A stretch of 48,711 nucleotides of DNA. Origin: a virus. Its lineage: Duplodnaviria; Caudoviricetes. Of this stretch, positions 2,503-45,653 are shown in pieces (position 1 is the first letter of the stretch; every line of letters begins with the position of its first letter). The stretch is taken from positions 1 through 48,711 of the IMG/VR virus record IMGVR_UViG_3300047562_001063, one strand, 5' to 3'. The translations under genes were made by a program, and so were the position numbers. The notes under the pieces are model-generated. The model made no database searches. It was not told the origin of the DNA and worked only from the letters and a program-made list of their open reading frames with translations.

Positions 2503-2766
2503 TCAAGCGGCGCGTCGAACACTTTCATCTTTTTCGTGTCTTACAGAATCCCTGAGAGTATTAGCTATTACTTTTGGTGATAGAGTTTTGCTTCTTGGTA
2601 TAGATAGTTGTATTCTGGATTCAGGATGTATAAATTTCTCATGATCGCCACGACCACTATTATCTGCTGGCGTCCAACCTATATTCATGACACGTTTTCT
2701 TAAATCTTTTCTGGTAAGATTTAAAGTGCCTTCTTGAAGCTGTACAAATTCCATGAATGTGAGCAT
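2503..2766 (-). CDS. HicA-like mRNA interferase with capsid-targeting-like leader
   Basis: GW....GRGDHEKFIHP...LSIP......LSPKVIANTL matches the HicA dsRBD pattern; N-terminus MLTFMEFVQLQE; late promoter upstream. Confidence 0.7.
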   Translation of the reverse strand: MLTFMEFVQLQEGTLNLTRKDLRKRVMNIGWTPADNSGRGDHEKFIHPESRIQLSIPRSKTLSPKVIANTLRDSVRHEKDESVRRAA

Positions 2767-2787
2767 CTTGATTTCCTTTCTGATAGA

Positions 2788-2795
2788 TATTTATA
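2788..2795 (-). promoter_or_regulatory. T4-type late promoter TATAAATA
   Basis: TATTTATA on + strand, ~22 nt upstream of ORF 2766(-). Confidence 0.7.
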
Positions 2796-2799
2796 AATT

Positions 2800-2874
2800 G
2801 GGGTAATGGCAGAATGGCTTATGCAGCGGACTGCAAATCCGCAAATACAGGTTCAATTCCTGTTTACCCCTCCA
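2800..2874 (+). tRNA. tRNA-Cys(GCA)
   Basis: GCGGA-CTGCAAA-TCCGC, U73, CCA. Confidence 0.95.
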
Positions 2875-2888
2875 AACATTTGAAAGCA

Positions 2889-2896
2889 TATAAATA
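2889..2896 (+). promoter_or_regulatory. T4-type late promoter TATAAATA
   Basis: Exact T4 late consensus upstream of AAAGGAG RBS of ORF 2916. Confidence 0.75.
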
Positions 2897-2915
2897 ATTC
2901 AAAGGAGTTTATCTT

Positions 2916-3461
2916 ATGCTTTCATTCTCGCAATTCATGACAGAACATGTACTTTCAATTGGACTTAATCCAGAACACGAGAAGTACAGAGAACAGTATC
3001 GAAACGACATTCATAATATTCTCAGAAACTCATATTCAGGCATCGGTGGATATTCTGGTATACCATCTGGTACTGAAGATGAATCCAAGTCGATACACAA
3101 TGATATCTCAAACTCTGCAATGAAAGTTGTCGTGAGAAAAGGCAAAGTTTCAGCGGTAACACTTTACAAGAAACAACTCGGTCGAAAGACAATTGCAGTT
3201 GGCACAGATGGCACCAAACGTGGCAAACTCGATTTCATGAAGACAGCGGCTGAAGATAACAAGATGAAAAGATCGTGGGCTGAAGTTTCTGGTGCACCTG
3301 AAGCAATCATGCGAAAGATTGGAACTCCTGTCGTTCCATCTAGCGAAGCAGAGAAGCTTCTTGGAAAGAAAGTTCGTATCGTAGACAAAGAGCGATACAG
3401 AAGAAAGATCGGCAAACAGTCCCACGAGAAAGTCATAATGGGTCATCCTCAGAAACCTTGA
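2916..3461 (+). CDS. hypothetical protein with MLSFSQFMTE leader (putative internal head protein)
   Basis: 181-aa ORF, RBS, late promoter, leader motif. Confidence 0.8.
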   Translation: MLSFSQFMTEHVLSIGLNPEHEKYREQYRNDIHNILRNSYSGIGGYSGIPSGTEDESKSIHNDISNSAMKVVVRKGKVSAVTLYKKQLGRKTIAVGTDGTKRGKLDFMKTAAEDNKMKRSWAEVSGAPEAIMRKIGTPVVPSSEAEKLLGKKVRIVDKERYRRKIGKQSHEKVIMGHPQKP

Positions 3462-3486
3462 CATTCTTTCGTTTTCATGTTATAAT
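3458..3486 (+). promoter_or_regulatory. sigma70-type promoter
   Basis: TTGACA-17nt-TATAAT. Confidence 0.8.
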
Positions 3487-3495
3487 TTTGTTATA

Positions 3496-3744
3496 ATGAG
3501 TAAGGAAATGATTATCAGTATCGTTGAGTGTTCTTCTGGTCTAGAGAATGAAATTCTAATCAAGTCAGATACTACTGTAGAAGAACTTGATGAAGCAATT
3601 CAGAATATTCTACTAGACAACATCACAGATCAATCAGAAATCAGAATTTTCTATCCTTCAAAATTTAGTGACATCGTTAATGATGTTGCAGTCAAATATG
3701 GTATCAATGCATCTGTAGCCCCCTCCGCTACGAACGGAGAGTAA
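3496..3744 (+). CDS. hypothetical acidic protein
   Basis: 82-aa ORF after promoter; 3' end overlaps tRNA-Arg-like element. Confidence 0.6.
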   Translation: MSKEMIISIVECSSGLENEILIKSDTTVEELDEAIQNILLDNITDQSEIRIFYPSKFSDIVNDVAVKYGINASVAPSATNGE

Positions 3745-3802
3745 GGTAACTGGACGTGGACAGAAATGTCTGATGCAGGTTCGAATCCTGTCAGATGCTC
3801 CA
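3709..3802 (+). tRNA. atypical tRNA-Arg(ACG) lacking D-arm
   Basis: GCATCTG/CAGATGC-T-CCA acceptor; CTCCG-CTACGAA-CGGAG; canonical T-arm; only 7 nt in place of D-arm; ~35-nt variable region. Confidence 0.7.
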
Positions 3803-3832
3803 TACTAAATACTACCAAAGGAGAAACTTCAT

Positions 3833-4555
3833 ATGAAAACATTCAAACAGTTTATGCTTGAAGCATACAATGTGGATTATGGTACTCAGGGTGGTTCTAA
3901 TAAGGGTGGTAAAGCCACCGATGAACAGGGTAATCAGTTCTATGTCAAGCATTACAAAGATGGTGAACATGCCAAAGTCGAAGCACTAACAAGTGCTATT
4001 TACAAGCACATGGGAATCAATACACTTGATCCTAAGCATGAAGTCATTGACGGCAAGCCATCTGTTGTTACAAAGTGGCAAGAAGGTCTGAAGCCAATGG
4101 GTCATAGAGACTTTGATAAGCTTTCGCCTGAACAGGCAGAGCATGTTGGTAAGATGTATCATGCTGCTGTGCTTACAAAGAACTGGGACATCACTGGTAC
4201 AGGTCTTGATTATGGTGAAGGTAATATGCAAATTCACCCAAAGACTGGCAAGATTTACAATGTTGATCCTGGTGGATCATTTCATTACAGAGCGCAAGGT
4301 GGTCCAAAAGACTACAGTCCAGACATCTCAGAAAAAGAAACATTCAGAGATGGTAACAAGGAATCAGGTAGAGTATTTAACAAAGTATTTGACGCCCATC
4401 CTGATGCAGAACAAAAGGGGCTTGATGCTGTACGTAACATGGACGATGAACATGTTCATGGCTTATTCAAGAACTCTGGCTTACAGAATTGGCAGAGCTT
4501 GCATAAGACGTTCATGCAGAGAAAGAACAATTTAATTAAATCTTATGGAGGTTGA
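3833..4555 (+). CDS. HipA/PI3-PI4-kinase-like protein with MKTFKQFMLE leader
   Basis: FYVKHY...EALTSAIY..MGI, NWD...GN...IYNVDPGGSF kinase-fold motifs; ACTAAATA late promoter at 3804-3811. Confidence 0.65.
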   Translation: MKTFKQFMLEAYNVDYGTQGGSNKGGKATDEQGNQFYVKHYKDGEHAKVEALTSAIYKHMGINTLDPKHEVIDGKPSVVTKWQEGLKPMGHRDFDKLSPEQAEHVGKMYHAAVLTKNWDITGTGLDYGEGNMQIHPKTGKIYNVDPGGSFHYRAQGGPKDYSPDISEKETFRDGNKESGRVFNKVFDAHPDAEQKGLDAVRNMDDEHVHGLFKNSGLQNWQSLHKTFMQRKNNLIKSYGG

Positions 4556-4564
4556 TCTTATATA

Positions 4565-4909
4565 ATGTGGATTTGTTTTAATGATGGTTTTGTGAGTGCA
4601 GTTGAAGACTGGAATGACAAGAGTATGCTTCGTGTTCGTGCTAGAAAGCGTGAGCATCTAGAATTTCTGAATGTACCGATTCAACAAGATCAGGGTACTG
4701 ATTATAAGTTTCGTTGTTTCATTAGCAAAGAATCCTTTGCCGATATTGTCAAGCAAAGGATTCTAAACATCAACTATGGTAACTTCAAGAGTAGTGTGAA
4801 GGATCGCAATCTACATGATCTATATGCTGACTTCTGGGAACTACACTATGATTACCAGATTGCTAATTATGGTTATCGACGCCTTGTTCCAAATGGCAAT
4901 TCTAATTGA
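4565..4909 (+). CDS. conserved phage hypothetical protein
   Basis: MW....GFVSAV...LRVRAR...DY.FR...INY.NFK pattern. Confidence 0.7.
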   Translation: MWICFNDGFVSAVEDWNDKSMLRVRARKREHLEFLNVPIQQDQGTDYKFRCFISKESFADIVKQRILNINYGNFKSSVKDRNLHDLYADFWELHYDYQIANYGYRRLVPNGNSN

Positions 4910-5928
4910 TTTGGATTGAGAACAGGATGAGCGTCCCATAAGTGAATATGATCTACGCCTAATCTTGGACCATATTTACCTCTGTTTGCTCTTACGATTG
5001 TTGGATGAGGCATGATTTGAAATGTAGTCTGTCTTGGTATGAGAAACTCTTTCTCATTATCAAAATTTGATCTTGTGCCGATAAACTCACCTGGATGACC
5101 TGCTGGTAGATGTATTTTCAAGATATGTCTATCACCAGGGTCATCATTAAAAAGATCCTCTTTCACTCTACCTCTTTTTATTTTAGAAGCAAATTCTAAT
5201 CCTGTACCAGGCTCAATAGATGATGAAGTGTAACCTGGATGATAAAGTCTATTATAAGAGTTCTTTGCTGCTTCCAAACCAGGATTGTATTTGACTCCTG
5301 CAAACACAGTAAGCTTTGTTGGCAACTGTCTAGATTGCAATGCTTTGTCTAGAATTTTTAGATTGTGACCACCAATTCTATCATCTTCATAATCACTTCC
5401 TGTGCCTAAAAAATGCTCCCAAAGAGTTCTGTTCAAATAGTTACTGTCTTCTGTATATCTAAATATTTCAGGATGAAGACTTTTTTTTGTTTGTCCATAT
5501 TCTTTCAGTAAGTTTTCTTCTTGATCATAGTAGTGATAACTGTGTGATCGTGAAGGATCTACGCTTGGTGAAATGTGCTGATTTTCAAGTTTGAATCGTT
5601 CGTTGATTTGATTTTTTGCGAGATATAGATCAGGCAATTCTGCAATTTCTCTTGCCATACCAAACTGATATGCATGACCCACACCTGGTTCTGCGTTATA
5701 CGCATCTTTGTTGAAATTATATGTCGGACTCCAGTCTTGAAGTCCATAATTTTCATTTACTTTTTTTTTCTGTGAAGAAGGTCTTGATTGCGACTTCTTT
5801 TTGATTTCGGCCATTTCTTCAGGAGTTGGCTTAACATCAAGAGAGTGCATACCATGTTGAATGAGAACTGGTGTACCGCGCGGGTCGGTGTTGATTGGCT
5901 TTCGTCTGAACTGCTTTAGTGTGATCAT
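4873..5928 (-). CDS. VIP2/Alt-like ADP-ribosyltransferase with leader
   Basis: YT....LN..L, TVFAGV, YTSSSI, ILKIHLP.G, NEKEFLIPR; N-terminus MITLKQF; AATAAATA late promoter at 5956-5963(-). Confidence 0.75.
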   Translation of the reverse strand: MITLKQFRRKPINTDPRGTPVLIQHGMHSLDVKPTPEEMAEIKKKSQSRPSSQKKKVNENYGLQDWSPTYNFNKDAYNAEPGVGHAYQFGMAREIAELPDLYLAKNQINERFKLENQHISPSVDPSRSHSYHYYDQEENLLKEYGQTKKSLHPEIFRYTEDSNYLNRTLWEHFLGTGSDYEDDRIGGHNLKILDKALQSRQLPTKLTVFAGVKYNPGLEAAKNSYNRLYHPGYTSSSIEPGTGLEFASKIKRGRVKEDLFNDDPGDRHILKIHLPAGHPGEFIGTRSNFDNEKEFLIPRQTTFQIMPHPTIVRANRGKYGPRLGVDHIHLWDAHPVLNPNQLELPFGTRRR

Positions 5929-7439: not shown

Positions 7440-7937
7440 ATGCCAGGACCATTATGGGAAGGCACAAGAGACTTGCATCATGCTTGTGAAGAACATCCAG
7501 TAGGTGCTGCTATGGCATCTGGAAAACCACCAATGCAATGGTATGCAGACTGGCTTTCTGCTTTGTACACAATTCACTGGACTGTAGATCAGCACATTCC
7601 AGAAATCATTCGCAGATCGGAACAAGTTCAAAAAGACTTAACAGATACAAACTGTCCTGTTAATATAATCCGCACAGCTAACGATTATGTAAATAGACTG
7701 AATACGGAAAAAGATATGGTTGGCTCAGCTTATGTATTGACAGGTGCCCATTTGATGGGCGGTGAAGTAATGCGTAGAAGACTTGTTGGCTATCCTACCA
7801 GTCATCTTGAATGGTCAGATAGAAAAGCAGCGATAGTAGAATTAACAAAGTTTAGAGAGCGCGAAGATGTGATTGCGGAAGCTAGAAACTGTTTTCAAGC
7901 CCTTCTAAACATCATGGACGAAATCAAAGCCGCTTAG
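7440..7937 (+). CDS. heme oxygenase-like protein
   Basis: L.E.TR.LH...E.HP proximal helix; AYVL.G..LMGG distal motif; EA...F. Confidence 0.7.
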   Translation: MPGPLWEGTRDLHHACEEHPVGAAMASGKPPMQWYADWLSALYTIHWTVDQHIPEIIRRSEQVQKDLTDTNCPVNIIRTANDYVNRLNTEKDMVGSAYVLTGAHLMGGEVMRRRLVGYPTSHLEWSDRKAAIVELTKFREREDVIAEARNCFQALLNIMDEIKAA

Positions 7938-8002
7938 TTCACTGGTAGAACACCTCGTTTACACCGAGGGTGTAGGGAGTTCGATTCTCTCAGCGGCTAC
8001 CA
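7928..8002 (+). tRNA. tRNA-Val(TAC)
   Basis: CCTCG-TTTACAC-CGAGG; overlaps the heme oxygenase stop codon. Confidence 0.9.
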
Positions 8003-8007
8003 TTAAT

Positions 8008-8089
8008 GCGGATATGGTGAAATGGCAGACACGCTAGTCTTAGGAACTAGTGCTTAGGCGTGGGGGTTCAAGTCTCTCTACCCGCACCA
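8008..8089 (+). tRNA. tRNA-Leu(TAG)
   Basis: CTAGT-CTTAGGA-ACTAG, variable arm, A73. Confidence 0.93.
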
Positions 8090-8095
8090 ATCACT

Positions 8096-8169
8096 GCCTC
8101 TATAGTATAGTGGTAGAACAATCCTTTGGTAGGGGATTGGCTCCAGTTCGATTCTGGATAGAGGCACCA
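8096..8169 (+). tRNA. tRNA-Thr(GGT)
   Basis: ATCCT-TTGGTAG-GGGAT, CCA. Confidence 0.9.
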
Positions 8170-8185
8170 TTATAGGAACTTAACA

Positions 8186-8527
8186 ATGCGTATTCTAGTA
8201 TGCGGCGGCCGTGACTTCAATAACAGAGCCCTCCTTAATAAGGCACTCCAGCCTTATGCTTCAAAAGACAATATCATCATTCAAGGTTCTGCTAGAGGAG
8301 CAGACGATCTGGCCAAAATCTGGGCAGTTGACAATGGTATTGAGTTCAAGAATTATCCTGCTGATTGGAATAAATATGGCAAACGAGCAGGATACATTCG
8401 CAATGTACAAATGTTGAATGAAGGTAAACCAGATTTAGTGATAGCTTTTCCAGGTGGTAAAGGCACTCAAATGATGATTAACCTAGCGGAGTCAGCTGGT
8501 ATCCCAGTTGTGAAAATAAATGATTAG
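8186..8527 (+). CDS. SLOG/YspA-like (DUF2493) protein
   Basis: MRILVCGGRDF, G.ARGAD, AGYIRN.QML, AFPGGKGT. Confidence 0.88.
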   Translation: MRILVCGGRDFNNRALLNKALQPYASKDNIIIQGSARGADDLAKIWAVDNGIEFKNYPADWNKYGKRAGYIRNVQMLNEGKPDLVIAFPGGKGTQMMINLAESAGIPVVKIND

Positions 8528-9017: not shown

Positions 9018-9021
9018 AATT

Positions 9022-9471: not shown

Positions 9472-9475
9472 TATA

Positions 9476-9565
9476 GGAAAGATGGCCGAGTGGTCGAAGG
9501 CACCTCACTGCTAACGAGGCGTACTCTAACCAGTACCGTGGGTTCGAATCCCACTCTTTCCGCCA
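9476..9565 (+). tRNA. tRNA-Ser(GCT)
   Basis: CTGCTAA loop, long variable arm, G73. Confidence 0.93.
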
Positions 9566-12629: not shown

Positions 12630-15446
12630 ATGAAAAATTTAAGGTCGATATATGAACAGGTCAGACAGTCTGGCCGTCAAAAAACTCTTCTAGATGAAGA
12701 AGTTACAAGAAAAGAACTGGCACCCATGCTGGATTCTTTTGTTTCTTTTGCTTCAGACAAACTAGGTCTAAAATCCCTTCCAAACATCAGATACAAAGAT
12801 GAAAGCGACGATTACAACTCGTTTGCTGCATATAGTCCTGCCACAAATGAACTCTCTATCTGCACAATGAACAGACATCCAATGGACATATTCCGTTCGG
12901 TCGCTCATGAACTTGTGCATCACAAACAGAATGAAGATGGCCGTATAGGAAAAGACATAGCCAAAGAGGGTGAGACTGGTTCAGATATCGAAAACGAAGC
13001 AAATGCAGAAGCTGGTAAAATCATGCGCTGGTTTGCTAGAGCCAATCCATCTATGTTCAGTAAGAGCTATGTAATAGAAGATCACGCTGCCAATCATGCA
13101 TCTGGTGGTGAAATCAGAGGTATGGGATATGTGACAGGCGATTCTTCACCAACAGTGACTTCAAAGTATTTGATTCAAAATATTGCTGATACCGAGAAAA
13201 TGAAGTCTAACCACACTTCCAATTTGTGGCAAGGTGAACTTCGTGATTGGATGGATGATGAAGAGGAAGAAGAATACAAGAACAAACAGCTTGCTGAAGG
13301 CGTCAATGACCCTGCAAAATTGAAAGCTGTATTTCTCGCAGGTGGACCAGGTTCAGGTAAAGACTTTGTAATGAAAAGATCACTAACAGGTCATGGTCTA
13401 AGAGAAATTAATTCCGATAAAGCACTAGAACACTTGATGAGAAAAGGCGGTCTTGATTTTGAGATGCCTGAATCTGAAAAGGTTGAAAGAGAAAAGCTTT
13501 TAGGTAGAGCCAGAGAGATCAGAAAAGCAACTGAACGATCTACACTTGCTGGTCGTCAAGGTCATATCATCAATGGTACAGCAGAAAGCGTAGATCATAT
13601 ACAATCAATCAAAGACAGACTTGAAGGTCTTGGTTACGAAACAATGATGGTTTTTGTAGACACATCAAATGAAGTTTCAAAACTGAGAAATAGAGCTAGA
13701 GGTAAAAAGGGTGAGAGAAAAGTTCCTGATGGCACAGACAAGAATGGTGTACCAGATGGTTCAAAAGATATTCGTCAATGGAAGTGGAGTGCTGCTCAAG
13801 AGAACAAAGAAACTTTTAGAAAGCTTTTTGGTGATGACAAATTCACAACGATTGACAATACGGCAGACTACAATAAAGCAACGCCAGAAGAAAGAGAAAA
13901 ACTTGACGGTCATTTTGATCGTGTAAGAAATATGGTATCTCAATTTGCTCAAGGTCCAGTAAAGACTCCTGAAGGTCAGCAGTGGATAAGGAGTGAAACA
14001 CAGAAAAGAGGTATCACAAAGTTTGTACCACCAAAGACATTATTGAGTCCACAAGCAGACAGATCAGTCGAATCACCAAAAGCATATCTGAGACCACCAG
14101 CAGAACAAATGATGCAAGCAAGACGCTATGGTCTATCCTACTATGGAAACAATCAGTTTGGCAGAAACATCGGTGGTAAAAGAGAAATTTTCACACAAAA
14201 TAATGGCAAGTTTCAACGTAATGCTGTTAATGAAGATTTGCGTAAATGGTTTAGCAAAAAACATCCAGAAGGTGATTGGAAAAGAATCAATAGTGAAGGT
14301 GAAGCAATTGGTCCTTGTGCAAGAGAACCTGGTGAACCAAAACCAAAGTGCATGTCAAAGAAAAAGAGATCGCAGTTATCTAAAAAAGAAAGAGCTGCGG
14401 CTGTTAGAGCTAAAAGAAAACATGATCCTGATGCAGATAGAAAAGGTGCTCCTATCAATGTTTCTAATTTTGGTAAGGGCAAATTAACTAAGGAACAAAC
14501 AATGAGTTATCTAGAAGAAAAAAATGTACCTACAAATCCATCATTATGGTCTAAAGCGAAGTCATTAGCAAAGTCAAAGTTTGATGTATATCCATCTGCA
14601 TATGCTAATGGTTGGGCATCAAAATGGTACAAATCAAAAGGTGGCGGTTGGAAGTCAGTAAATGAAAGCTTTGAAGATTATATCAAAATTCCTTCTAATA
14701 GAGAAATTGGATCAAACTCACTAGCAATGATCTATAAGACAATGACACCTGGTCAAGAACCAGGAACAGAGGCGCCTGATGCAAGAAAGAGAAAGAAGCT
14801 GGCTCAAGAAGACGCTGGTCTACCAAAAGGTGCATGGGACTTAGCATCTATGAATGATGGTCTTGGTGCTACCTTCTCGCTGAGAGCATCACCTGCGCTT
14901 GTTACTGGGTTCTCTCAGATTGGTAGCACATTGGCTGAAGCTGCACCTTCAATTCGTAAGTGGGCACTTAACGAAAATACACAAAGAAAGTTTTTTGAAA
15001 AATATGGTGAAGAAGCACTAACCAAGCTACTAGAAGCATGTGAAAGACTTCAAGAAGCAGGATGTGGTTGTGAACATTCTGGAACAAAATCTATTAAAAA
15101 ACTTAGAGAGTCGTTTGATAAAGGTATCATGGATATGAAACCTATTGGTATTGGCATGTACAGACCTCATATGGAAGTTGATGAAGATTGGCAGAAAGTG
15201 AACCGTAGAGACAAGACAGACGGTCTAAGTCAAGCTGCTGTTGATGCATATCGTCGTGAAAATCCTGGTTCTAAGTTACAGACTGCTGTAACTGAAAAGA
15301 AACCAACAGGTAAAAGAAAAAAGCGCAGATTGTCATTCTGTCGCCGTATGAGAGGCATGAAGAAGCGTTTGACTTCTGCTGAGACAGCCAGAGATCCAGA
15401 TTCAGATATCAACAAAGCACTCCGTAGATGGAATTGCGAAGAATAG
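12630..15446 (+). CDS. multi-domain polyprotein: zincin HEXXH + Zeta-toxin-like P-loop kinase + basic domains
   Basis: AHELVHHKQ..ENEANA.AG; LAGGPGSGKD; YPSAYANGW..KWYK..GGGW; RR.SFC.RM.GM..ALRRWNC; ACTAAATA at 12588. Confidence 0.8.
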   Translation: MKNLRSIYEQVRQSGRQKTLLDEEVTRKELAPMLDSFVSFASDKLGLKSLPNIRYKDESDDYNSFAAYSPATNELSICTMNRHPMDIFRSVAHELVHHKQNEDGRIGKDIAKEGETGSDIENEANAEAGKIMRWFARANPSMFSKSYVIEDHAANHASGGEIRGMGYVTGDSSPTVTSKYLIQNIADTEKMKSNHTSNLWQGELRDWMDDEEEEEYKNKQLAEGVNDPAKLKAVFLAGGPGSGKDFVMKRSLTGHGLREINSDKALEHLMRKGGLDFEMPESEKVEREKLLGRAREIRKATERSTLAGRQGHIINGTAESVDHIQSIKDRLEGLGYETMMVFVDTSNEVSKLRNRARGKKGERKVPDGTDKNGVPDGSKDIRQWKWSAAQENKETFRKLFGDDKFTTIDNTADYNKATPEEREKLDGHFDRVRNMVSQFAQGPVKTPEGQQWIRSETQKRGITKFVPPKTLLSPQADRSVESPKAYLRPPAEQMMQARRYGLSYYGNNQFGRNIGGKREIFTQNNGKFQRNAVNEDLRKWFSKKHPEGDWKRINSEGEAIGPCAREPGEPKPKCMSKKKRSQLSKKERAAAVRAKRKHDPDADRKGAPINVSNFGKGKLTKEQTMSYLEEKNVPTNPSLWSKAKSLAKSKFDVYPSAYANGWASKWYKSKGGGWKSVNESFEDYIKIPSNREIGSNSLAMIYKTMTPGQEPGTEAPDARKRKKLAQEDAGLPKGAWDLASMNDGLGATFSLRASPALVTGFSQIGSTLAEAAPSIRKWALNENTQRKFFEKYGEEALTKLLEACERLQEAGCGCEHSGTKSIKKLRESFDKGIMDMKPIGIGMYRPHMEVDEDWQKVNRRDKTDGLSQAAVDAYRRENPGSKLQTAVTEKKPTGKRKKRRLSFCRRMRGMKKRLTSAETARDPDSDINKALRRWNCEE

Positions 15447-17422: not shown

Positions 17423-18106
17423 ATGTTAAGATTTCGAAGAATACTAAATGAAGAAATGATGCCTTATGCTCAAACTGAGAAAGGTTTTGTAGGTGTTGAT
17501 AATGGTCCTGTCAGAGACAACATCAATATTCATTTGACAGCTATTACTGCTAGACCATATGCAACACCTTATCATGCTCTAGAAATGGTACGTAAAGTTC
17601 TTGCACCATTTCATATCGGTCTTCCTGCAACCAATTTTCTTGCTGGAGATTCAGGACATGAAGTCTTCGAAATCAATCAGTTTGGTGAAAGAGTAGGTAT
17701 GAGAAATAATGGTGATGTTGTCACAAAGACAGGATCACCATATTTCATCTACTTTGAATACTCAATGAACGACAGAGGTGGTTTTGATATCTTCTGTGAG
17801 ATAGTCAATCAAGAAGAACTTGATGAAATCATGAGTGACATTCAAAATGAAATGGAAAATGGTGATGATGATTACTATGATGAAGAGCAAGATGCTTCAG
17901 ATTCATATGAGTCATATAAGTCAAATAATCATATAAAAGAAGCTAAAGATTTCAAGAGTGATTATGATCGCAATTGGAAATATGTCAAGATGCATAGTGC
18001 TGCCGCTAAAAAAGCAGTCGAGTACATAGACGATAAAAAGTTTGACAAAGCAAAGCTCAAAGTCAAGATGATGAAGAGGATTCAATCCAAGATAAAAGAT
18101 GATTGA
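17423..18106 (+). CDS. hypothetical protein with MLRFRRILNEE leader
   Basis: 227-aa ORF. Confidence 0.75.
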   Translation: MLRFRRILNEEMMPYAQTEKGFVGVDNGPVRDNINIHLTAITARPYATPYHALEMVRKVLAPFHIGLPATNFLAGDSGHEVFEINQFGERVGMRNNGDVVTKTGSPYFIYFEYSMNDRGGFDIFCEIVNQEELDEIMSDIQNEMENGDDDYYDEEQDASDSYESYKSNNHIKEAKDFKSDYDRNWKYVKMHSAAAKKAVEYIDDKKFDKAKLKVKMMKRIQSKIKDD

Positions 18107-18553: not shown

Positions 18554-20056
18554 ATGAGTTTACATACGCAAAAAGATCACTATGCCGCTATAGAAGATGT
18601 GCATGTCAATCTAGAAAACAGAAATCATGCATTTGATGAGTATGGTTATGGACCATTGAATCCAAAAGAACCGAGCGATGATTTCTGGAAACAAAAAGCG
18701 AAAGTCTTCAAGACAACTATAGAAGAAGCAAAGAAGTCTCGCTGCGGAAATTGTGCAGCATTCAATCAATCGAAAGAAATAATGAAGCGCATAGCTGATG
18801 GTCTAGGTCCAGTCGGTAATGTTGTTGCTGAGAAAGCTGATCTTGGATTTTGTGAAACGTTCAAGTTCAAGTGTGCCGCTGAAAGAACATGTGATGCTTG
18901 GCTTGTTAATGGTCCAATTAATGAAGGTCTAATGGATTATCTTCCTTCTGCCGATTCAGTTTATGCTTTTGGAAGAAATGCGGCCGATACTGCAACATTT
19001 GGTGGAGCAAAGTATGCAAGCGCCGCGGCTCAATATGCAGCTAAGAACACTGCAAGTGCATTAGGATACGGTAAAGGCACAACATTCAAAAAAGAACTTG
19101 ATCAAGAAAAAGAAAAGCTTGCAAGAGATGATATCAAGAATCCTCAGGCAGCGGCAGCAGGTGATATTGCAGGATATGCAGCAATGGCTGTTGCACCTGA
19201 AATTCCTGTTATAGGTAGAACAATAGGTTCTGCAATAGGTGCAGGTGAGAAAGCAGCAAAAGTTCCATACTATCTAGGACTGGCTAAGAAAGCAGTTGGT
19301 CTTGAAGAAGAAGTTGATGTTAGAGGTAAGACATTATATAGAGGTAACAAATCCGAAAGTAGCAATAATCCACTTGGAACATATCTAACGACAGATAAAG
19401 ATTTTGCTTCCGGTTATGGTAATGTTTCATCACATAAAATTCCTGAAGATTCAAAAATTCTTGATATGGATAATGATGATAATGCAAAAGTCTGGCATCC
19501 CTTTCATGGTACGAAGCACTTTAATCCAAAAAATCTTCCTAGTGAAAAGATAGGACTCTTCGGTATCTTGGGTGCTCACAAAGGTGATTATGATGGTGAT
19601 GCAGAATTGTATCAGTCACATAGAGACAGAATTACTAATGCTGGATATGATGGTGTTTCTCTTTCACATGGAATGGGCAAAGGTCACACTAGAGTATTCA
19701 TGTTCAATAAGAAAAACATTAAAGAAGATATGACTGCTGGTTCAGGTCAAATTGCAGGTCTTGGTGTTGGTCCTCAAGGTGAACCAGGAAGACCTGCACA
19801 GATGATGCCAATGGTAAAAAGAGCAAAGAGAGGAACATTTGGTAAATGGGATACTTTTGAGGTATCATCAGACAGATTTCATAAGATCAAAGAAGAGAAA
19901 CGCAAAGGTAGTCACTGGCGCAAGTATCTAGACGGCGATGATTATTATCATGACATTCGTGAGTATGCCAATCATCCAAAGACAAAGAACAAACCAATTA
20001 TTTTACAAGACGAACGAACAGGTGCAATGACATTTGCTCGTTATGGAAAACAATAA
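18554..20056 (+). CDS. multi-domain polyprotein: Cys-rich domain + Ala-rich helical domain + ART-like domain
   Basis: CGNC..F...GFC..FKFKC...RTCDAW; TLYRG..GTYLTTD...A..YG..AGYDGV; domains separated by INE/LEE/IKE. Confidence 0.75.
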   Translation: MSLHTQKDHYAAIEDVHVNLENRNHAFDEYGYGPLNPKEPSDDFWKQKAKVFKTTIEEAKKSRCGNCAAFNQSKEIMKRIADGLGPVGNVVAEKADLGFCETFKFKCAAERTCDAWLVNGPINEGLMDYLPSADSVYAFGRNAADTATFGGAKYASAAAQYAAKNTASALGYGKGTTFKKELDQEKEKLARDDIKNPQAAAAGDIAGYAAMAVAPEIPVIGRTIGSAIGAGEKAAKVPYYLGLAKKAVGLEEEVDVRGKTLYRGNKSESSNNPLGTYLTTDKDFASGYGNVSSHKIPEDSKILDMDNDDNAKVWHPFHGTKHFNPKNLPSEKIGLFGILGAHKGDYDGDAELYQSHRDRITNAGYDGVSLSHGMGKGHTRVFMFNKKNIKEDMTAGSGQIAGLGVGPQGEPGRPAQMMPMVKRAKRGTFGKWDTFEVSSDRFHKIKEEKRKGSHWRKYLDGDDYYHDIREYANHPKTKNKPIILQDERTGAMTFARYGKQ

Positions 20057-20588: not shown

Positions 20589-20878
20589 TGGAAAGCTGGA
20601 TCAAACAATACTGGAGACCAGCAATCGCATGGCAGTATTTTACTGTCTGTGTGTTTGACTTCATTATTTTTCCAGCAGCATATATGTATTTTGCACAACA
20701 GCAATGGGATCCTATCACATTGAAAGAGGGTGGTTTCTATCATCTTGCAATGGCAGCAATCATTGGTGTTGCTGCTTGGACAAGAGGTAAAGAAAAGATC
20801 ACTCGCATTCTTGAAGGCGGAATAGAAACGATAGAAGAGAAGACAAAGACAACTCAAACACCAACGAGAAACAAATGA
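20588..20878 (+). CDS. 3TM holin-like protein
   Basis: WRPAIAW.Y...FDF..FP, YHLAM.AI.GV.AWTRG.EK; adjacent to endolysin. Confidence 0.75.
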   Translation: MESWIKQYWRPAIAWQYFTVCVFDFIIFPAAYMYFAQQQWDPITLKEGGFYHLAMAAIIGVAAWTRGKEKITRILEGGIETIEEKTKTTQTPTRNK

Positions 20879-21654
20879 AAACATTTAAACAGTTTATATT
20901 AGAACAAGATCAAGTTCAGCAAAGAAGAGCAGATATTCAAAAGAAACTTGAAGCTGGTTTCGAAAGGGTAAATAAAGACCTTAATCAAATAAATGTTCGT
21001 ACTATGCGTGCCTCTGATGGAACAAGTAAAATTACACCAAGCGATAAGGTAGACTACACAGGATCGCGATATGATCTTGGCAACGGCCAATCTATTGATC
21101 CATCAAGCATCTCTAATAAACCAAATGCAAAGCGTGAGTTAGGTCTTCGCAAAGATTATCGTTCACCACCCGCAGGATATCCAACATCTGTTAAAGATAG
21201 ACTTGCAGCAGCAGAAGCAGGTGATGAGCCACCTACACCTGGTTCAGGTCCTTATAAGATAAATTATTCAGATCCATTGAAAACACGACCTGCCGTTCCT
21301 ATAACAGCAGTCGATAAAGTTGTACCAAAGCCAAAACTAAGGCCCACACAAGAACCTGCTGTTCCTCCACCTAAACCAAAATTGAGACCTTTAGATAATA
21401 CTAAACAAGCAGTTTCTATTCCAGAACCTAAATCAATGGACTTGAATTTTACATCTAAAGGCAAGAAGCAAGCTGTAGAGCCGAAGGTTCCTATTCCAAA
21501 AGCGCGTGAACAGGATGTAATTACTATAAAAGATAAACATAAGATTTGGAACATAGCTGGCGGAGATCCTAAGAGAGTAAAAGAAATATTGAAGCTTAAT
21601 CCTGGTCTTAATCCAAATAAGATGCCAATTGGTTACAAGTTAAAATTAAAATGA
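20875..21654 (+). CDS. leader-bearing Pro-rich protein with C-terminal LysM
   Basis: MKTFKQFILEQ; PKPKLRP repeats; IWNIA...ILKLNPGLNPNKMPIGYKLKL. Confidence 0.75.
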   Translation: MKTFKQFILEQDQVQQRRADIQKKLEAGFERVNKDLNQINVRTMRASDGTSKITPSDKVDYTGSRYDLGNGQSIDPSSISNKPNAKRELGLRKDYRSPPAGYPTSVKDRLAAAEAGDEPPTPGSGPYKINYSDPLKTRPAVPITAVDKVVPKPKLRPTQEPAVPPPKPKLRPLDNTKQAVSIPEPKSMDLNFTSKGKKQAVEPKVPIPKAREQDVITIKDKHKIWNIAGGDPKRVKEILKLNPGLNPNKMPIGYKLKLK

Positions 21655-22610
21655 AAACGTTCAAACAGTTTATTAAAGAAACGGCTAATGAACAAACCAA
21701 AAAAACATTGGCAACTTTAGGCTATGATGAAAAAGCAAATAAAGTGACTGATATACCTCTATACTCAGGAGTAAAGAGAAATAAAGTTCCTGTAGGTTCT
21801 TTGGCAAGTAAAAAAGAACCGACTAAAAAAGAATATAGTTGGTTGGAAAAACATAAAAAGGATGCGGAACAAACTTATAATTATCGTCAAAAAGAACCGA
21901 AACAAGATAATGCTTTACCAACTGATCCTTGGTCTCTTAACAACCCAACTCATTCTTCTTCGCCTAAAGAAAAACTTACCGATTATGCCGCAAGAAAAAA
22001 AGAAGAATTGGACAGAAGATTTATATCCAAGGGAACAAAAAATTGGAATGCTTTGGCAGCATATGGATACGACACGTTAAAAGATAAGAAAACTGGTGTT
22101 CCTGCGATAGATATAGAAAATGATCCTGCTAAATCAGGTTCTTATTTGCCTGGAGAAAAACGCATAAAAGTTGAAATTAAATCTAAACCAACAACAAGAC
22201 ATGAGTTCGGTCATGTGGGTTCTGTAAAACTTAATAGAGGAAAGTATGATCCAGACACAGAAGAAATGAGACAGAGGGATTTGGACACAAGAAGCAAAGA
22301 AAATAAAAACGATAGATTTGATCCTGAAAACACACAAGTTTCAGATGCCAAATCTTGGTGGAAATCATTAAAAAAAGGAAAAAATCCTAATCCTTTAAAA
22401 AACAAACTAAGTTCGCCTCTTGGTGATAGAGACAAAATTTCAATTGAAAAAACAAATGATAGATTAATATCTATGGCTAAAAAAGAATTGAGTAAAAAAT
22501 ATTTTAGAGGTGGAAGAGAAACCCATAGTGATAGTGATTTGATTTCTTCTGCTTTAGGAAGCACAATACCTACGGCAAATAAACATTTAAGTTCTGATAA
22601 CAAAAAATAA
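21651..22610 (+). CDS. leader-bearing protein with HEXXH motif
   Basis: MKTFKQFIKE; RHEFGHV...EE; AT-richer than neighbours by eye. Confidence 0.7.
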   Translation: MKTFKQFIKETANEQTKKTLATLGYDEKANKVTDIPLYSGVKRNKVPVGSLASKKEPTKKEYSWLEKHKKDAEQTYNYRQKEPKQDNALPTDPWSLNNPTHSSSPKEKLTDYAARKKEELDRRFISKGTKNWNALAAYGYDTLKDKKTGVPAIDIENDPAKSGSYLPGEKRIKVEIKSKPTTRHEFGHVGSVKLNRGKYDPDTEEMRQRDLDTRSKENKNDRFDPENTQVSDAKSWWKSLKKGKNPNPLKNKLSSPLGDRDKISIEKTNDRLISMAKKELSKKYFRGGRETHSDSDLISSALGSTIPTANKHLSSDNKK

Positions 22611-22744: not shown

Positions 22745-23212
22745 ATGAAAACATTCAAGCAGTATATAAAAGAAGCATTAGACAAGCCATATGAGTATGA
22801 TGAACTAGGTTCTTTTGAACTCAGTTCAGGGGAAATGGAACATCATTATGGTTTCAAAGATCATAAAGGTATACCAACTCATGTGTATATCACACATCAT
22901 GCAGGAAATTCTGGTAAAGGCAAAGCATCTGTAGATTTTACTGATGAACATGGTGATATTTTGGCGACAGGTAGAGGAACTATCAGACATATCTCTACAG
23001 TCAAAAGAATTATGCAAGATCATGCTAAAAAGCATCCTCATTTGAAAATGTATACTTTTACGGGTGAAAAAGATTCTGATAAGCCTGGATCTGGTGGTAG
23101 AAATAGACTGTATACTCGTTTAGCAAAACAAGCTGGTGGATATTCTGATGACATCAACGCATATTCCAATAGGCATTACATTCCAATAAATAGAGACAAG
23201 AACGGAGACTGA
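22745..23212 (+). CDS. leader-bearing hypothetical protein
   Basis: True start likely ATG 22745 (MKTFKQYIKEA). Confidence 0.75.
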   Translation: MKTFKQYIKEALDKPYEYDELGSFELSSGEMEHHYGFKDHKGIPTHVYITHHAGNSGKGKASVDFTDEHGDILATGRGTIRHISTVKRIMQDHAKKHPHLKMYTFTGEKDSDKPGSGGRNRLYTRLAKQAGGYSDDINAYSNRHYIPINRDKNGD

Positions 23213-41389: not shown

Positions 41390-42724
41390 ATGACAAACAA
41401 AGTTCTCATAGAGAGAGTATCGCAATATCTAGACAAAATGGGCAAGTATTATCTCAATGAGGACTTGCTAATGGAAGAAGACATGCCAGATCAGAGTGAA
41501 GAACAGAGAGCAGAATGGATGCCTCCTGTTCTTCATGATTTCATGTTTCATCTAAGTGGACCAAGTGATCCACATGGTAATAAAAAGAAAATCTTAATGG
41601 AAGAAGTTCTTGATGAAGCAACGTTGATTGATATGTCGAAGGGCATTCGTCCAATGGCGCATAAGAACATGAACTTACCAAAGACAAGTGCTATCATCAA
41701 TAAGACTGAAGAAGAACGTGGTGGTAGAGAAGAAAATCTGCACAAGAAACTTGCCGCAGGATTCAAGAAAGCCAATTCTGAGATGGGCACAGAAGACAGG
41801 AAGACAAGAAGAGCAAAGCTATCTGAAGCTAAAAAAGTTTTTCAACAGTTCGCTCAGGCCCGTGGATTTAAAAGCAAGACAGCACCAAAACTTCTAGGTG
41901 GAAACATGAAGACAGAAAAGTCTTCTGGTGAAGGTGTTCTTACAACAGGACTTAATCTTGCACCACACGCTACAGCAGGTCTTCATGGCTTTGATACATG
42001 TCCTAAGTCTTCAAAAGATTGTAGAACAAATTGCTTGGGAACTGAAGCTGGCGGTAATCGTCAATATCCTGATGCAGCTTTGGCAGCCAAGACTTTGAGA
42101 ACACACTTTGTAGCGCATCATCCAGAACATGCTGCAAGAATTATGGATGCTGAAATCGAAGCACATAAGAAATCTGCAAAAAAGAAGGGTATGATTCCTG
42201 GTGTTCGTCTTAATGTTACATCAGATATTTCCTGGGAACATCATGCACCACAAATGTTTGAGCGTCACAAGGATGTCCAGTTTTATGACTATACCAAGAT
42301 GCCAAACAGAGTTATGAGACAGTATGAGCCAAAAGTAGAAGGTAGTCACTTCAACAAGGCAGGACATCCTGCCAACTATCATCTGACACTTTCGCACACA
42401 GGAACAGGTCATGCTGAGTCAAATGACGCTGATGTTATAAAAGTGCTTGAAAAGGGCGGTGTTGTAGCTTCTGTTTTCCAGCGCGGCAAGAAGAACAAGA
42501 AGCCAACTGCATATGAAGATGTAAAGACTGGTAAGAGATATCCAGTTGCCAACGGTGATGACGATGACAATACATTTGACCGTCATACTACACTTGGTAG
42601 AACAGAAGGATCATCTGGTCACGGTGTAGTTTCTGGTCTTCAGCTAAAAGGCGTCAAGAACGAAGATGCTGGCGTGTTTGCTAACAAAGTGGATGATGAT
42701 GGTATCGTCCGCATAAACAAGTAA
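41390..42724 (+). CDS. gp88-like (radical-SAM-related) protein with acidic N-terminal extension
   Basis: TCP..S..C...CL, VRLNVTSDI.WE, QFYDYTK, NYHLTLS, NGD..D, GL..KG. Confidence 0.7.
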   Translation: MTNKVLIERVSQYLDKMGKYYLNEDLLMEEDMPDQSEEQRAEWMPPVLHDFMFHLSGPSDPHGNKKKILMEEVLDEATLIDMSKGIRPMAHKNMNLPKTSAIINKTEEERGGREENLHKKLAAGFKKANSEMGTEDRKTRRAKLSEAKKVFQQFAQARGFKSKTAPKLLGGNMKTEKSSGEGVLTTGLNLAPHATAGLHGFDTCPKSSKDCRTNCLGTEAGGNRQYPDAALAAKTLRTHFVAHHPEHAARIMDAEIEAHKKSAKKKGMIPGVRLNVTSDISWEHHAPQMFERHKDVQFYDYTKMPNRVMRQYEPKVEGSHFNKAGHPANYHLTLSHTGTGHAESNDADVIKVLEKGGVVASVFQRGKKNKKPTAYEDVKTGKRYPVANGDDDDNTFDRHTTLGRTEGSSGHGVVSGLQLKGVKNEDAGVFANKVDDDGIVRINK

Positions 42725-42728
42725 TATT

Positions 42729-43160
42729 ATGCCAAGATTAGTTGTCATTACGGGCGGATTTGATCCTGTCCACTCAGGACACATTGAATATATCAATGAA
42801 GCAAAAAAGCTTGGCGACTATCTGTTTGTTGGTCTAAACTCAGATGAATGGCTTACTCGCAAAAAGGGTAAGTCATTCTTGCCTTGGACTGAAAGATATG
42901 TTATACTGTCAAACTTAAGGAGTGTAGATGATGTATTTGCTTTCGATGATTCTGATAACACTGCTATTGACGCTATCCGCCGTATTCGTGAAGAGAATCC
43001 AGACCAGACAATCATCTTTGCAAACGGCGGCGATAGAACGAAAGAGAACATACCAGAGATGGAATGTGGAATAGATGATGTTGAGTTTGTCTTTGGTGTT
43101 GGTGGTCAAGACAAGAAGAATAGTTCTAGCTGGATACTGAATAACTGGAGAAGCAAATGA
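42729..43160 (+). CDS. cytidylyltransferase-like (HXGH) protein
   Basis: GGFDP.HSGH, GLNSD.WL.RKKG, FANGGDR, K.NSSS. Confidence 0.9.
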   Translation: MPRLVVITGGFDPVHSGHIEYINEAKKLGDYLFVGLNSDEWLTRKKGKSFLPWTERYVILSNLRSVDDVFAFDDSDNTAIDAIRRIREENPDQTIIFANGGDRTKENIPEMECGIDDVEFVFGVGGQDKKNSSSWILNNWRSK

Positions 43161-43588
43161 AAACGTTTAAGCAACATCTCAACGAAGCGAAGATCAAGAT
43201 TGAAGCAAAGAAGTCGGGCAATGTAGATGACTTCTTCAAGGATTTAGATGCTTCAACACAATCCCATCCCTTTGATGATCGTCAACGATTACATGGTATG
43301 GTAGGTATTCATGCATCACCATTTGAAGGTGGCGTTCACTTGCATGATATCGTAAATTATGGTGAAGCGAAGCAAGGTAATGGCACTAGCGCACTTGAAC
43401 ATCTAAAGTCTCTTGCAGACACTCACGGTGTTGAGATTAGTGGCACAGCAAAGGCGTACTCAAATCATCCAAAGCACATCACAAAGACAAAACAATTGGT
43501 TGGTTGGTACAAGAAGCACGGCTTCAAAATTGGTCATGGAAGTGCTGAAGACGGATATGAAGTTTCATACAAAGGCACAAAGAAATGA
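43157..43588 (+). CDS. GNAT-like protein with MKTFKQHLNE leader
   Basis: KQGNGT.AL..L...AD..G..I...A, L..WY..HGF. Confidence 0.7.
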   Translation: MKTFKQHLNEAKIKIEAKKSGNVDDFFKDLDASTQSHPFDDRQRLHGMVGIHASPFEGGVHLHDIVNYGEAKQGNGTSALEHLKSLADTHGVEISGTAKAYSNHPKHITKTKQLVGWYKKHGFKIGHGSAEDGYEVSYKGTKK

Positions 43589-44394
43589 AGACGTTTAAGA
43601 AATTTGTCATCGATAAGACAGAAAAAGAACCTGTGTATCACAAGGTTTACATCGGTAAAGATTTTGATGTAAATACTGACAAGAAGCCAACTTATCACAA
43701 GGTCTTTATTGGTAAAATCGATAAAGCTGGTAAGCTTGATGAAGCATATGATTTCAGTAAAGTCTCAACAAAGTCTGATCTTCTTTCATCAGAAGGCAGA
43801 CTTGAAAGTTCACAGAGAAACACCGCACTAAGACAACACTATGATTTTAGCGGTGACTACAATCATAGAAGAGCAATACGATATTATACGACAAGTGCAT
43901 ATCGTAGAATAAACGGTCCAATGTATAAGGGTGAAGAGATTACTGATCCTGATGCGGCAGATGCGGTACCACATTTGAAGGCAGCTTTAACAAAACATAA
44001 AGCACCAGAAGATATTCCTGTACATTCAGGTATCAAGTATGATCCTAGAAAGCTACCTGTTGATGATGATAATGTCATGCGCGTAACGAACCCTGCATTC
44101 ACAAGCGCATCTTTGCATTCACAAATTGCAAAGGGATTTGTAAGCACAGACATTGATGAAAAAGAAAAACATGTGATACACTTCACTGTACCTAAAGGTT
44201 CTCATGGTGCATATGTAGATCATCATTCAGACAATGAAGGTGAAAGAGAGTTTGTACTGCATCCAAATGCGAAGCTTGAGATTCATCCAACTCCTGAAGT
44301 TGAAGATTTTGATACATGGAACGGAATGGGAAAACTGTATCACTGGAGAGCAAGACTTGTGCATGACGGTGTTCAAGAGGTCGGAGAAAAATGA
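43585..44394 (+). CDS. VIP2/Alt-like ADP-ribosyltransferase with leader
   Basis: AI.YYT...Y..IN, PVHSGI, FTSASL, HVI.F.VPKG, EGEREFVL. Confidence 0.75.
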   Translation: MKTFKKFVIDKTEKEPVYHKVYIGKDFDVNTDKKPTYHKVFIGKIDKAGKLDEAYDFSKVSTKSDLLSSEGRLESSQRNTALRQHYDFSGDYNHRRAIRYYTTSAYRRINGPMYKGEEITDPDAADAVPHLKAALTKHKAPEDIPVHSGIKYDPRKLPVDDDNVMRVTNPAFTSASLHSQIAKGFVSTDIDEKEKHVIHFTVPKGSHGAYVDHHSDNEGEREFVLHPNAKLEIHPTPEVEDFDTWNGMGKLYHWRARLVHDGVQEVGEK

Positions 44395-44588
44395 AACATT
44401 TCATTAAATATCTTGATGATAAAAATGCTGAGAAAGAAAAAGACATAGAGATGAAGATGAATGCTGCTATCACAGAAAACGATAAGACTGTGTATGCAGC
44501 ACATGATTATTATGGTAGCCCAAAGAAGATGGTATTCAAAAGAAAATCTCCCAGTTCTTCAGGTGGTAATGGAAATGGTGGTGAATAA
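44391..44588 (+). CDS. small hypothetical protein
   Basis: MKHFIKYLDD leader-like start; coupled. Confidence 0.6.
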   Translation: MKHFIKYLDDKNAEKEKDIEMKMNAAITENDKTVYAAHDYYGSPKKMVFKRKSPSSSGGNGNGGE

Positions 44589-44809
44589 TGTATCTTGATT
44601 ATTGGATGATCGCGGCAGTCATATTGTCATTTGGTGCATGTCACTGGATCAGTAGAGTACAAGGCATTCAAGAGGGTGCAGTGACTACTCTTCGTATGTT
44701 ACATGAAGAAAAGATCATCAACGTATCTGATGAAGGTAAAGTCAGTCGCTACTCCACATGGAATCAAAAACCAAAAAGAAAAAGAAGAAACAAAAATGTT
44801 GACCTTTAA
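44588..44809 (+). CDS. small membrane protein
   Basis: N-terminal TM helix. Confidence 0.6.
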   Translation: MYLDYWMIAAVILSFGACHWISRVQGIQEGAVTTLRMLHEEKIINVSDEGKVSRYSTWNQKPKRKRRNKNVDL

Positions 44810-45653
44810 ATCATATCTGAACGAACAAAAAGAAAAGAAGAAAGATGTAGAGACAAACTACAATAAAGTCTTCATTGGTAAGATTGGTAAATTCGATGAA
44901 GATGATGATGCAAAGTCGATCTATCACAAAGTCTTTATTGGTAAGGTCAAGAAGATAGACGAAGCATTTAGACAGGGTGCTGCTAGACATGAAGGTCCAC
45001 GTTTTGATGAAACACAAAGTCTTCATCAAAAGCTGTCAAGACGATATAAGTTTGGTAGAAAACTAGTAAAATCGAAAGGTTTTGAACCTGATCTTAATGA
45101 TCCTGATGGCGATAAAAAAACTGCCATAAGAAAATATTCTGGTATAATGTATAAGAAAATAAACAAATCACTCTACACAGGAGATTCAAGTGAACTGACA
45201 CCACAACACCAGTCTGTAATCGATAACTTGAAGTCTGCTCTCGTAAAGCATAAAACAGGTGAAGATATGACTGTCAGTTCTGGCATCAAAGTTTCTCCTG
45301 ACACTTTCAGAAAAAAAGGTGATGAAGGTCCAATAAAAATGACAATGCCCGCTTTCACAAGTACGTCTTTAGCTGTGCATGTTGCGAGAGATTTTGCTAA
45401 ACCTATCTGGAAAGAAGGTGACGGCGAAGAACACATGATTCATATAGATGTTCCTAAAGGTTCTCATGGTGCATATGTAGCACATCATAGTGCAATACCT
45501 GAAGAGCATGAATTCATCTTACATCCCGGCGCAAGACTTCATGTTGATCCTCTCCCTTCACACATCAGTGAACGTACAAATTCTGATGGTGATAAAATTA
45601 GAACACATCACTGGAATGCTCGTTTAGTTCATGATGGCGTAAAAGACGTTTGA
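44796..45653 (+). CDS. VIP2/Alt-like ADP-ribosyltransferase with leader (paralog of 43585)
   Basis: MLTFKSYLNEQ; AIRKYS..Y..IN, TVSSGI, FTSTSL, VPKGSHGAYV, EEHEFIL. Confidence 0.75.
   Translation: MLTFKSYLNEQKEKKKDVETNYNKVFIGKIGKFDEDDDAKSIYHKVFIGKVKKIDEAFRQGAARHEGPRFDETQSLHQKLSRRYKFGRKLVKSKGFEPDLNDPDGDKKTAIRKYSGIMYKKINKSLYTGDSSELTPQHQSVIDNLKSALVKHKTGEDMTVSSGIKVSPDTFRKKGDEGPIKMTMPAFTSTSLAVHVARDFAKPIWKEGDGEEHMIHIDVPKGSHGAYVAHHSAIPEEHEFILHPGARLHVDPLPSHISERTNSDGDKIRTHHWNARLVHDGVKDV

Follow-up and report, generated by a model that had tools for sequence, protein, structure and literature searches.

A candidate T4-type capsid-targeting leader on twelve genes with mixed cargo in a viral contig

The leader and the genes that carry it

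We analysed the viral contig IMGVR_UViG_3300047562_001063 of IMG/VR over its whole length of 48,711 nucleotides (48.7 kb), called the window below. Twelve of its genes, designated here by the coordinate of their first base (Table 1), start with variants of one short leader of about ten residues, which resembles the tag that directs internal proteins (IPs) into the head of phage T4. A sequence-only reading of this DNA had listed eleven of these N-termini, and all eleven are present where it placed them (11/11); the twelfth, in gene 44391 (MKHFIKYLDD), had been overlooked.

Phe occupies residue 4 in 11 of the 12 leaders (Leu in 5928), and residue 7 is Phe, Tyr or His in 10, with Phe7 kept in 2766 and an Ile in 17423 counted as a miss. 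The motif [ILM]xE stands at residues 8-10 in 8/12 leaders. It is displaced to 10-12 (L-Q-E) in 2766, Asp10 is found in 43585 and 44391, and 5928, which has a 7-residue head only, lacks Glu10; a later [ILV]xE is present in 43585 (51-53) and in 5928 (first at 57-59).

The leader was generalised as an aromatic residue, two residues, an aromatic residue or His, an aliphatic residue, then Glu or Asp. This pattern matched 9 gene starts and 1 internal ATG (at 47154) in the window, and three further leader genes carry variants of it. When the first 15 residues of the window's 83 open reading frames (ORFs) were shuffled, 0.18 matches were expected (P(≥9)=3e-13), which places the leader far above chance. 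Another pattern, derived from the hits themselves, matched 9 window starts and 0 in 40 order-4 Markov sequences, a comparison that is circular by construction.

The bodies behind the leaders had been described as unrelated. This stands for most of them, with about ten kinds of body among the 12 genes, because the three ADP-ribosyltransferase (ART)-like proteins are homologues (43585/44796, 39%). Several genes had also been credited with their own late promoter; a late-promoter-like octamer, NNTAAATA, lies 27-35 nucleotides (nt) upstream of four of the twelve (2766, 2916, 3833 and 5928).

The window also contains 23 tRNA genes and, from a Pfam-type scan, encodes a T4-like primase (≤47% identity to cultured T4-like phages), ThyX, class II ribonucleotide reductase, RNase H and PhoH. 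The permuted transfer-messenger RNA (tmRNA) of alphaproteobacterial type at 46316-46675 on the + strand (RF01849, RF04321) hints at an alphaproteobacterial host.

Table 1. Leader-led genes, polyproteins and associated genes of the window
Feature	Position	Strand	Remarks
HicA-like protein	2503..2766	-	Leader variant, L-Q-E at 10-12; TATAAATA 29 nt upstream; inserted between tRNA genes
Leader-led 181-residue protein, large phage family, GNAT-like lead (Atlas)	2916..3461	+	TATAAATA 27 nt upstream
Leader-led atypical kinase	3833..4555	+	CtkA / actin-fragmin / PI3K-like fold; ACTAAATA 29 nt upstream
Leaderless 114-residue protein X	4565..4909	+	Directly 3' of the kinase gene; conserved
ART-like, Arg-less subfamily	4873..5928	-	7-residue leader head; long propeptide, first [ILV]xE at 57-59; AATAAATA 35 nt upstream
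938-residue polyprotein, degenerate leader	12630..15446	+	HEXXH, AAA_33/zeta-kinase and DUF6321 modules, several after [ILV]xE
Leader variant MLRFRRILNE, acidic body	17423..18106	+	No family match; homologues leader-led
500-residue polyprotein without N-terminal leader	18554..20056	+	Two modules missing in relative, [ILV]xE-bounded
Leader-led basic Pro/Lys-rich protein	20875..21654	+	Relative shares only first ~83 residues
Leader-led basic protein with HEXXH	21651..22610	+	No family match
Leader-led 155-residue protein	22745..23212	+	DUF6934 lead (12% of one Atlas cluster); homologue in relative's head-gene region
GP88-family protein	41390..42724	+	Several N-terminal [ILV]xE; leader-led homologue in contig G005
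Leader-led probable GNAT	43157..43588	+	Slot holds leader-led SAM lyase in relative
ART-like, Arg-less subfamily	43585..44394	+	Asp10 leader, repeated propeptide motif, L-D-E at 51-53
65-residue leader-variant protein (Asp10)	44391..44588	+	Conserved in relative
ART-like, Arg-less subfamily, 39% to 43585	44796..45653	+	Leader, repeated propeptide motif, I-D-E at 54-56

Correspondence with the T4 capsid-targeting sequence

IPI, IPII and IPIII of T4 carry a capsid targeting sequence processed by gp21 (Mullaney and Black 1996, as reported in PMC9026906, PMC3012670, PMC8442874 and PMC12373910), which reads MKTYQEFIAE in IPIII (PMC8442874). As described in PMC9026906, residues 4 and 7 of the tag serve targeting and residues 8 and 10 processing, Asp10 stops cleavage and not packaging, propeptides measure 10-19 residues, and the tag may be the route by which T4-like phages load varied proteins. 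Ip1-3 of T4 are injected and inhibit type IV restriction enzymes (PMC12373910); across the T-even phages, reports count 10 or more types of Ip (PMC12373910; PMC3012670).

A leader score was derived from the window leaders alone and applied to 30 T4 genes. IPII and IPIII (21.8 each) and IPI (19.9) came out on top, the next gene scoring 9.2. The layout of IPI, with the same head and a later I-T-E, is that of 43585 and 5928. The window leaders agree with T4 at both the targeting residues (4 and 7) and the processing residues (8 and 10). These four positions are also held among the homologues of kinase 3833, residues 2, 3, 5, 6 and 9 being variable: the leader is kept in 66/120 of them (strict pattern) or 76/120 (loose pattern), and the 83 homologues with Glu10 have Phe4 in 74, Phe or Tyr7 in 75 and Ile, Leu, Val or Met8 in 65. 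Because the leader matches the T4 head-loading tag so closely, the window proteins are likely to be packaged in the head and clipped, and possibly injected.

Four IMG/VR contigs (G001-G004) overlap one another, match the window in long blocks, mostly at 81-94% nucleotide identity, and look like one close relative of the window phage. Contig G002, whose shared blocks are 85-94% identical to the window, encodes an S77 gp21-type prohead protease (PF03420, E-value 3.6e-38), a gp22-like scaffold and gp23, for which the nearest cultured match shows 67% identity. No leader is found on replication or metabolism genes, either in the window or in G002. Two leader-led genes of G002 (2636-4191), one of them a 22745 homologue, lie directly 5' of the large terminase gene. 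Directly after the portal gene, a leader-variant protein (10013-10936) was noticed whose C-terminal half looks ART-like by eye, with no Pfam support, and whose N-terminus is similar to that of the virion kinase of cyanophage S-CREM2.

Cargo swaps, polyproteins and breadth

One leader-led S-adenosylmethionine (SAM) lyase of the relative (PF23780, E-value 1e-8) stands in for the three genes at 41390-43588. Similarly, 20875-23212 is replaced by a leader-led HEAT-repeat protein and by a protein sharing with 20875 the residues given in Table 1.

The same exchange is visible inside longer proteins. Where 18554 departs from the relative (two modules), and where the 12630 orthologue does (one insert), the boundaries fall exactly at [ILV]xE-type motifs. 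Elsewhere, leader-led stand-alone proteins correspond to three of the 12630 modules and to one 18554 module. An inner module of 18554 (19313-19729) is ART-PolyVal-like (E-value 6.6e-4, below the cut-off). At 15487-16814, two charged, [ILV]xE-rich proteins (15487 and 16293) lie behind a late-promoter-like site; they too differ from the relative by blocks, with a less clean alignment, and may be core or polyprotein cargo.

Fusions of the 2916 family were collected by a profile search (best 150 of 459 hits). All internal fusions (21/21) begin at [ILVM]xE, for which the background is 0.15-0.20, and the result holds with the leader columns taken out of the profile; because one partner domain is common to 8 of the 21 junctions, they do not count as independent. 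Fusion protein P0131 retains an internal leader copy before its kinase. The density of [ILV]xE over whole proteins gave no separation of cargo from replication proteins, the junction positions alone separating them.

Searching IMG/VR with one exact leader pattern gave at least 123 loci (~770 stretches estimated). Among the matches listed, the exact leader is at the first ATG of the frame in 112/120 distinct ORFs, and the bodies of more than 25 residues (118) sort into 74 groups. Thirteen of 72 representative bodies have a Pfam match: lysozyme, glucosaminidase, DPBB, GNAT, two ART types, SAM lyase, cytidylyltransferase, zeta-type kinase, helix-turn-helix and three DUFs. Many of the leader-led bodies are short and basic, without a family.

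Virion proteomes of cyanophages

Published virion proteomes of two cyanophages, S-CREM2 and S-SCSM1, were used as a test set; S-CREM1, with 14 virion proteins, and S-SCSM2R, with 23, lie outside this set. The virion table of S-CREM2 holds 52 of 219 ORFs (PMC10665884). All three strict-leader proteins are among them (SAM hydrolase, kinase and cytidylyltransferase; 3/3, p=0.013), as are 5/9 with the loose leader and 7/8 with a leader score of at least 12 (p=2e-4, the threshold having been picked after the fact). For S-SCSM1 the virion set was taken from the GenBank notes, which mark 48 of 282 coding sequences, against 45 in PMC9602691. Two of three strict-leader proteins are marked, including an NMNAT (p=0.076, and 0.015 among non-structural genes). 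Pooled over both phages, 5/6 strict leaders belong to virion proteins (p=0.0015). Three of the virion proteins in these two phages are matched by modules of 12630, and no annotated tail or baseplate protein of either carries the strict leader. This enrichment supports packaging in related phages, and not in the window phage itself.

The main text of PMC10665884 does not mention a leader, a propeptide or capsid targeting. A leader-like motif also stands ~17 residues into S-CREM2 ORF12 (7704-10313), a Cas9-like virion protein by annotation, and lies outside the start-anchored patterns.

Nature of the cargo

Kinase 3833 had been called HipA/PI3K-like, and this is borne out by its predicted fold and its catalytic-type residues. 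The predicted local distance difference test (pLDDT) score is 93.6, the first ten residues (53) forming a short helix, with residues 4-8 helical and apart from the domain. The best structure matches were CtkA (E-value 1e-5) and actin-fragmin kinase (5e-5), PI3K-family structures also being found; a sequence-profile search of solved structures gave no match. The Gly-rich loop, Lys, Glu and catalytic-loop Asp/Asn are invariant in 60 sequences. Elsewhere, the domain occurs in longer proteins, MuF-fused in 2/6 and ART-fused in 3, and within a 2146-residue particle-associated protein of phage fHe-Yen8-01.

Protein X (4565) is a candidate partner or antidote of this kinase. It follows the kinase in 6/9 distant loci, three of which show the cassette of kinase, leaderless X and ART and three more the kinase with X; the other three (L166-L168, unrelated phage contigs) are kinase-free. 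A role as dedicated antidote was not established, X occurring without the kinase in 3/9 loci.

The HicA-like label of 2766 holds (PF07927, E-value 2.7e-6, 27.8 bits for a cut-off of 27); no antitoxin ORF adjoins the gene, which is flanked by tRNA genes. For 43157, the proposed GNAT assignment is backed by 2/10 family members (best E-value 8e-4), the protein itself having no match, and a profile search of the family against the Protein Data Bank gave weak, unrelated matches, none informative.

All three ART-like proteins (5928, 43585 and 44796) match PF03496 above the cut-off, and Ser-x-Ser and Glu-x-Glu are kept in the alignment. The earlier ART labels hold for the fold profile; the Arg of the R-S-E motif, which in ARTs binds nicotinamide adenine dinucleotide (NAD), is replaced. 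Among 25 ARTs selected from IMG/VR by motif, of which 3 were not assignable, two may be one gene and one assignment is uncertain, the Arg is found in 0/22 (Ser 13, Thr 6, His 3). MuF-fused and polyvalent ART controls retain it. The Arg-less state is a trait of the subfamily and not a link to the leader, because the search motif selects the subfamily. Protein-seeded scans for further ARTs returned known loci or nothing. A twice-repeated short motif lies in the long leader-to-domain propeptide of ART cargos (43585-43750, 44796-44965 and loci L048, L127, L134 and L135) and differs between subgroups.

The remaining genes were less readily classified. The LysM label proposed for 20875 was rejected, its best LysM-type match having an E-value of 0.1 on the last 50 residues. 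Protein 21651 does contain the HEXXH motif reported earlier, without a family behind it, and profile scans likewise gave no family match for 17423 and 44391. The GP88-family protein 41390 is a probable further cargo. Scans with PADLOC matched 0/17 proteins, and NCBIfam gave nothing above cut-off in 24.

Two other features of the window were noted. Rfam detects a longer tRNA-like element at 1866-1963 (37.5 bits), not listed by ARAGORN. Within the tRNA region, we take 7440-7937 by eye to be heme-oxygenase-like and 9582-10043 Dps/ferritin-like.

Discussion

These results are probably best explained by a twelve-gene, T4-type tag system with mixed cargo. By analogy with T4, the leader would bind the assembling prohead core, enclosing the proteins in the head, the phage's gp21-type protease would clip them after Glu, and part of the cargo would enter the host along with the DNA. 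The leader would act as an exchangeable address, with body swaps between close relatives and [ILVM]xE-joined polyproteins both visible in the sequence; the polyproteins would be cut at this motif into separate proteins. The cargo appears mixed, comprising a kinase, a HicA-like RNase, probable GNATs, ART-fold proteins of uncertain activity and basic, family-less proteins. Some of it likely targets the host or host defences at entry (in the relative, one slot is filled by a SAM lyase), and other cargo is likely DNA-binding or core filler. We are rather confident of packaging and regard injection of at least part of the set as fairly probable; action of the cargo on host targets or defences is suggested more weakly.

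Several observations weigh against this interpretation. First, gp21, gp22 and gp23 lie outside the 48.7-kb window and were found in the relative, and no late-promoter-like octamer was found within 80 nt upstream of eight of the twelve genes, which would rely on promoters further upstream. Second, the leader thresholds were set after S-CREM2 had been seen. The loose pattern was rejected as a virion predictor, not being enriched in S-SCSM1 (2/9, p=0.65) or pooled (7/18, p=0.064); the best leader of S-SCSM1, that of ORF30, is not on a marked virion protein; and the strict leader is present in only 3/28 and 2/19 non-structural virion proteins of the two phages. The authors of the S-CREM2 study also cautioned that such enzymes may co-purify (PMC10665884). 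Third, Glu10 is at least 90% conserved in the 2916 family, where it could be structural. Finally, 59/72 sampled IMG/VR bodies, many incomplete, have no Pfam match, and the R-S-E Arg, on the first catalytic strand, is found in 0/14 aligned leader-led ART members.

We considered whether the packaged proteins could mainly be prohead-core filler or DNA counter-ions, largely degraded or retained in the head and not acting as host effectors. A predicted pI (isoelectric point) above 8 in 8/12 mature parts fits this, as do the short, basic, family-less bodies in IMG/VR, the Arg-less ARTs and the abundance of the same [ILV]xE-type motif in the relative's gp22-like and gp68-like core proteins. It accounts poorly for a kinase with a confident fold and invariant catalytic-type residues, whose domain also rides on MuF and polyvalent carriers, and for the SAM lyase, lysozyme, glucosaminidase, GNAT and nucleotidyltransferase found behind the leader; the T4 precedent, Ip1-3, is moreover one of injected restriction inhibitors (PMC12373910). 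We judge this account unlikely.

Still less credible is that the leader is mainly a DNA or RNA cassette, providing a good translation start and a recombination handle, spread by shuffling and without a packaging role here. The DNA of the last residues of 20875 and of the 21651 leader (21621-21680) recurs, diverged, before 22745 (22712-22774), and this repeat is likely the scar of a cassette insertion by recombination at the leader. Since ~30 nt before 21651 recur before 22745, the leader DNA has indeed served as a site of duplication or recombination, and the absence of the perfect-leader ORF30 from the S-SCSM1 virion list also agrees with a cassette. However, the kinase homologues vary and hold precisely the leader residues that T4 genetics predicts, replication and metabolism genes are free of the leader, strict leaders are enriched in virions and P0131 keeps its internal copy. 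That the leader is an amphipathic helix targeting the membrane, the tail or a phage chaperone, its Glu motif being incidental, is hardly tenable: the predicted helix separate from the domain, the location of several leader-led genes in the holin/endolysin region and the wall hydrolases among IMG/VR bodies speak for it, and the near identity to the IPI and IPIII leaders, the 21/21 [ILVM]xE junctions and the strict-leader-free annotated tail and baseplate proteins of both cyanophages against it.

The packaging tag compares first with the T4 IPs. In both, the leader has ten residues, with aromatics at 4 and 7 and aliphatic-x-Glu at 8-10, some propeptides are longer, the bodies are not homologous, the genes adjoin a tRNA cluster and there is a gp21/gp22/gp23 head system, here seen in the close relative. 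The window phage differs by having ~12 such genes in 49 kb, against 3 in T4, by bodies of up to 35 kDa with enzyme folds instead of small restriction inhibitors, by polyproteins joined at the predicted cut motif, and by its distant lineage (major capsid protein 67% identical to the nearest cultured phage, alphaproteobacterial-type tmRNA). T4 Alt and the Alt/VIP2 ARTs described in PMC9503650 and PMC5694885 share with the window ARTs the PF03496 fold, Ser-x-Ser, Glu-x-Glu, a propeptide ending in [ILV]xE and predicted packaging; they differ from them in the R-S-E Arg, replaced in all three window ARTs and in 22/22 assignable, motif-selected relatives, and in the carrier, which in the window is an IP-type leader and not MuF. 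Head packaging of MuF-fused and polyvalent enzymes was proposed in PMC9503650; these virion-borne, mixed enzyme sets contain the same kinase, ART-PolyVal and Nudix domains, anchored by a folded head protein instead of a 10-residue cleavable tag and protease-motif joints. In SPN3US and phiKZ, of another phage group, many internal head proteins likewise bear propeptides that the prohead protease removes by cutting after Glu, at A/S/G-x-E, and the portions of PMC5694885 considered describe no shared short leader.

The tag, its portability and its polymorphic bodies are already known in T-even phages, and Glu-ended propeptides in giant phages (PMC5694885). Within the open-licence literature we found no description of the tag on enzyme cargo outside T-even phages, of motif-jointed polyproteins or of Arg-less ARTs.

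The sequence-only reading had proposed a plug-and-play tag loading an arsenal of toxin-like or anti-defence enzymes. Its first half is well supported, if indirectly, by the match to the T4 leader, the gp21 of the relative, the slot swaps and the proteome enrichment. The injected arsenal was overstated: it is plausible for a minority of the genes, the three ARTs lacking the Arg and PADLOC recognising none of the 17 proteins scanned, and only the HicA-like protein, the kinase and probably a GNAT are recognisable enzymes with plausible motifs. We thus regard the system as an expanded, enzyme-carrying variant of the T4 capsid-targeting system.

Conclusions

More tentatively, distant T4-like phages may possess a general, sequence-readable delivery system in which a 10-residue tag and protease-motif joints load a polymorphic range of ready-made enzymes (kinases, acetyltransferases, SAM lyase, RNase, wall hydrolases) into the head for injection, including Arg-less ARTs with altered NAD chemistry or a decoy role against NAD/ADP-ribose defences. 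The tag makes the question of what a phage injects a sequence search, yields a shortlist of candidate anti-defence and host-takeover proteins acting before phage gene expression, and may account for the kinases, SAM hydrolase and NMNAT-like enzymes that have been reported from cyanophage particles. If such a delivery system exists, the proteins that thousands of uncultured phages inject could be predicted from the tag, and new anti-defence proteins along with them.

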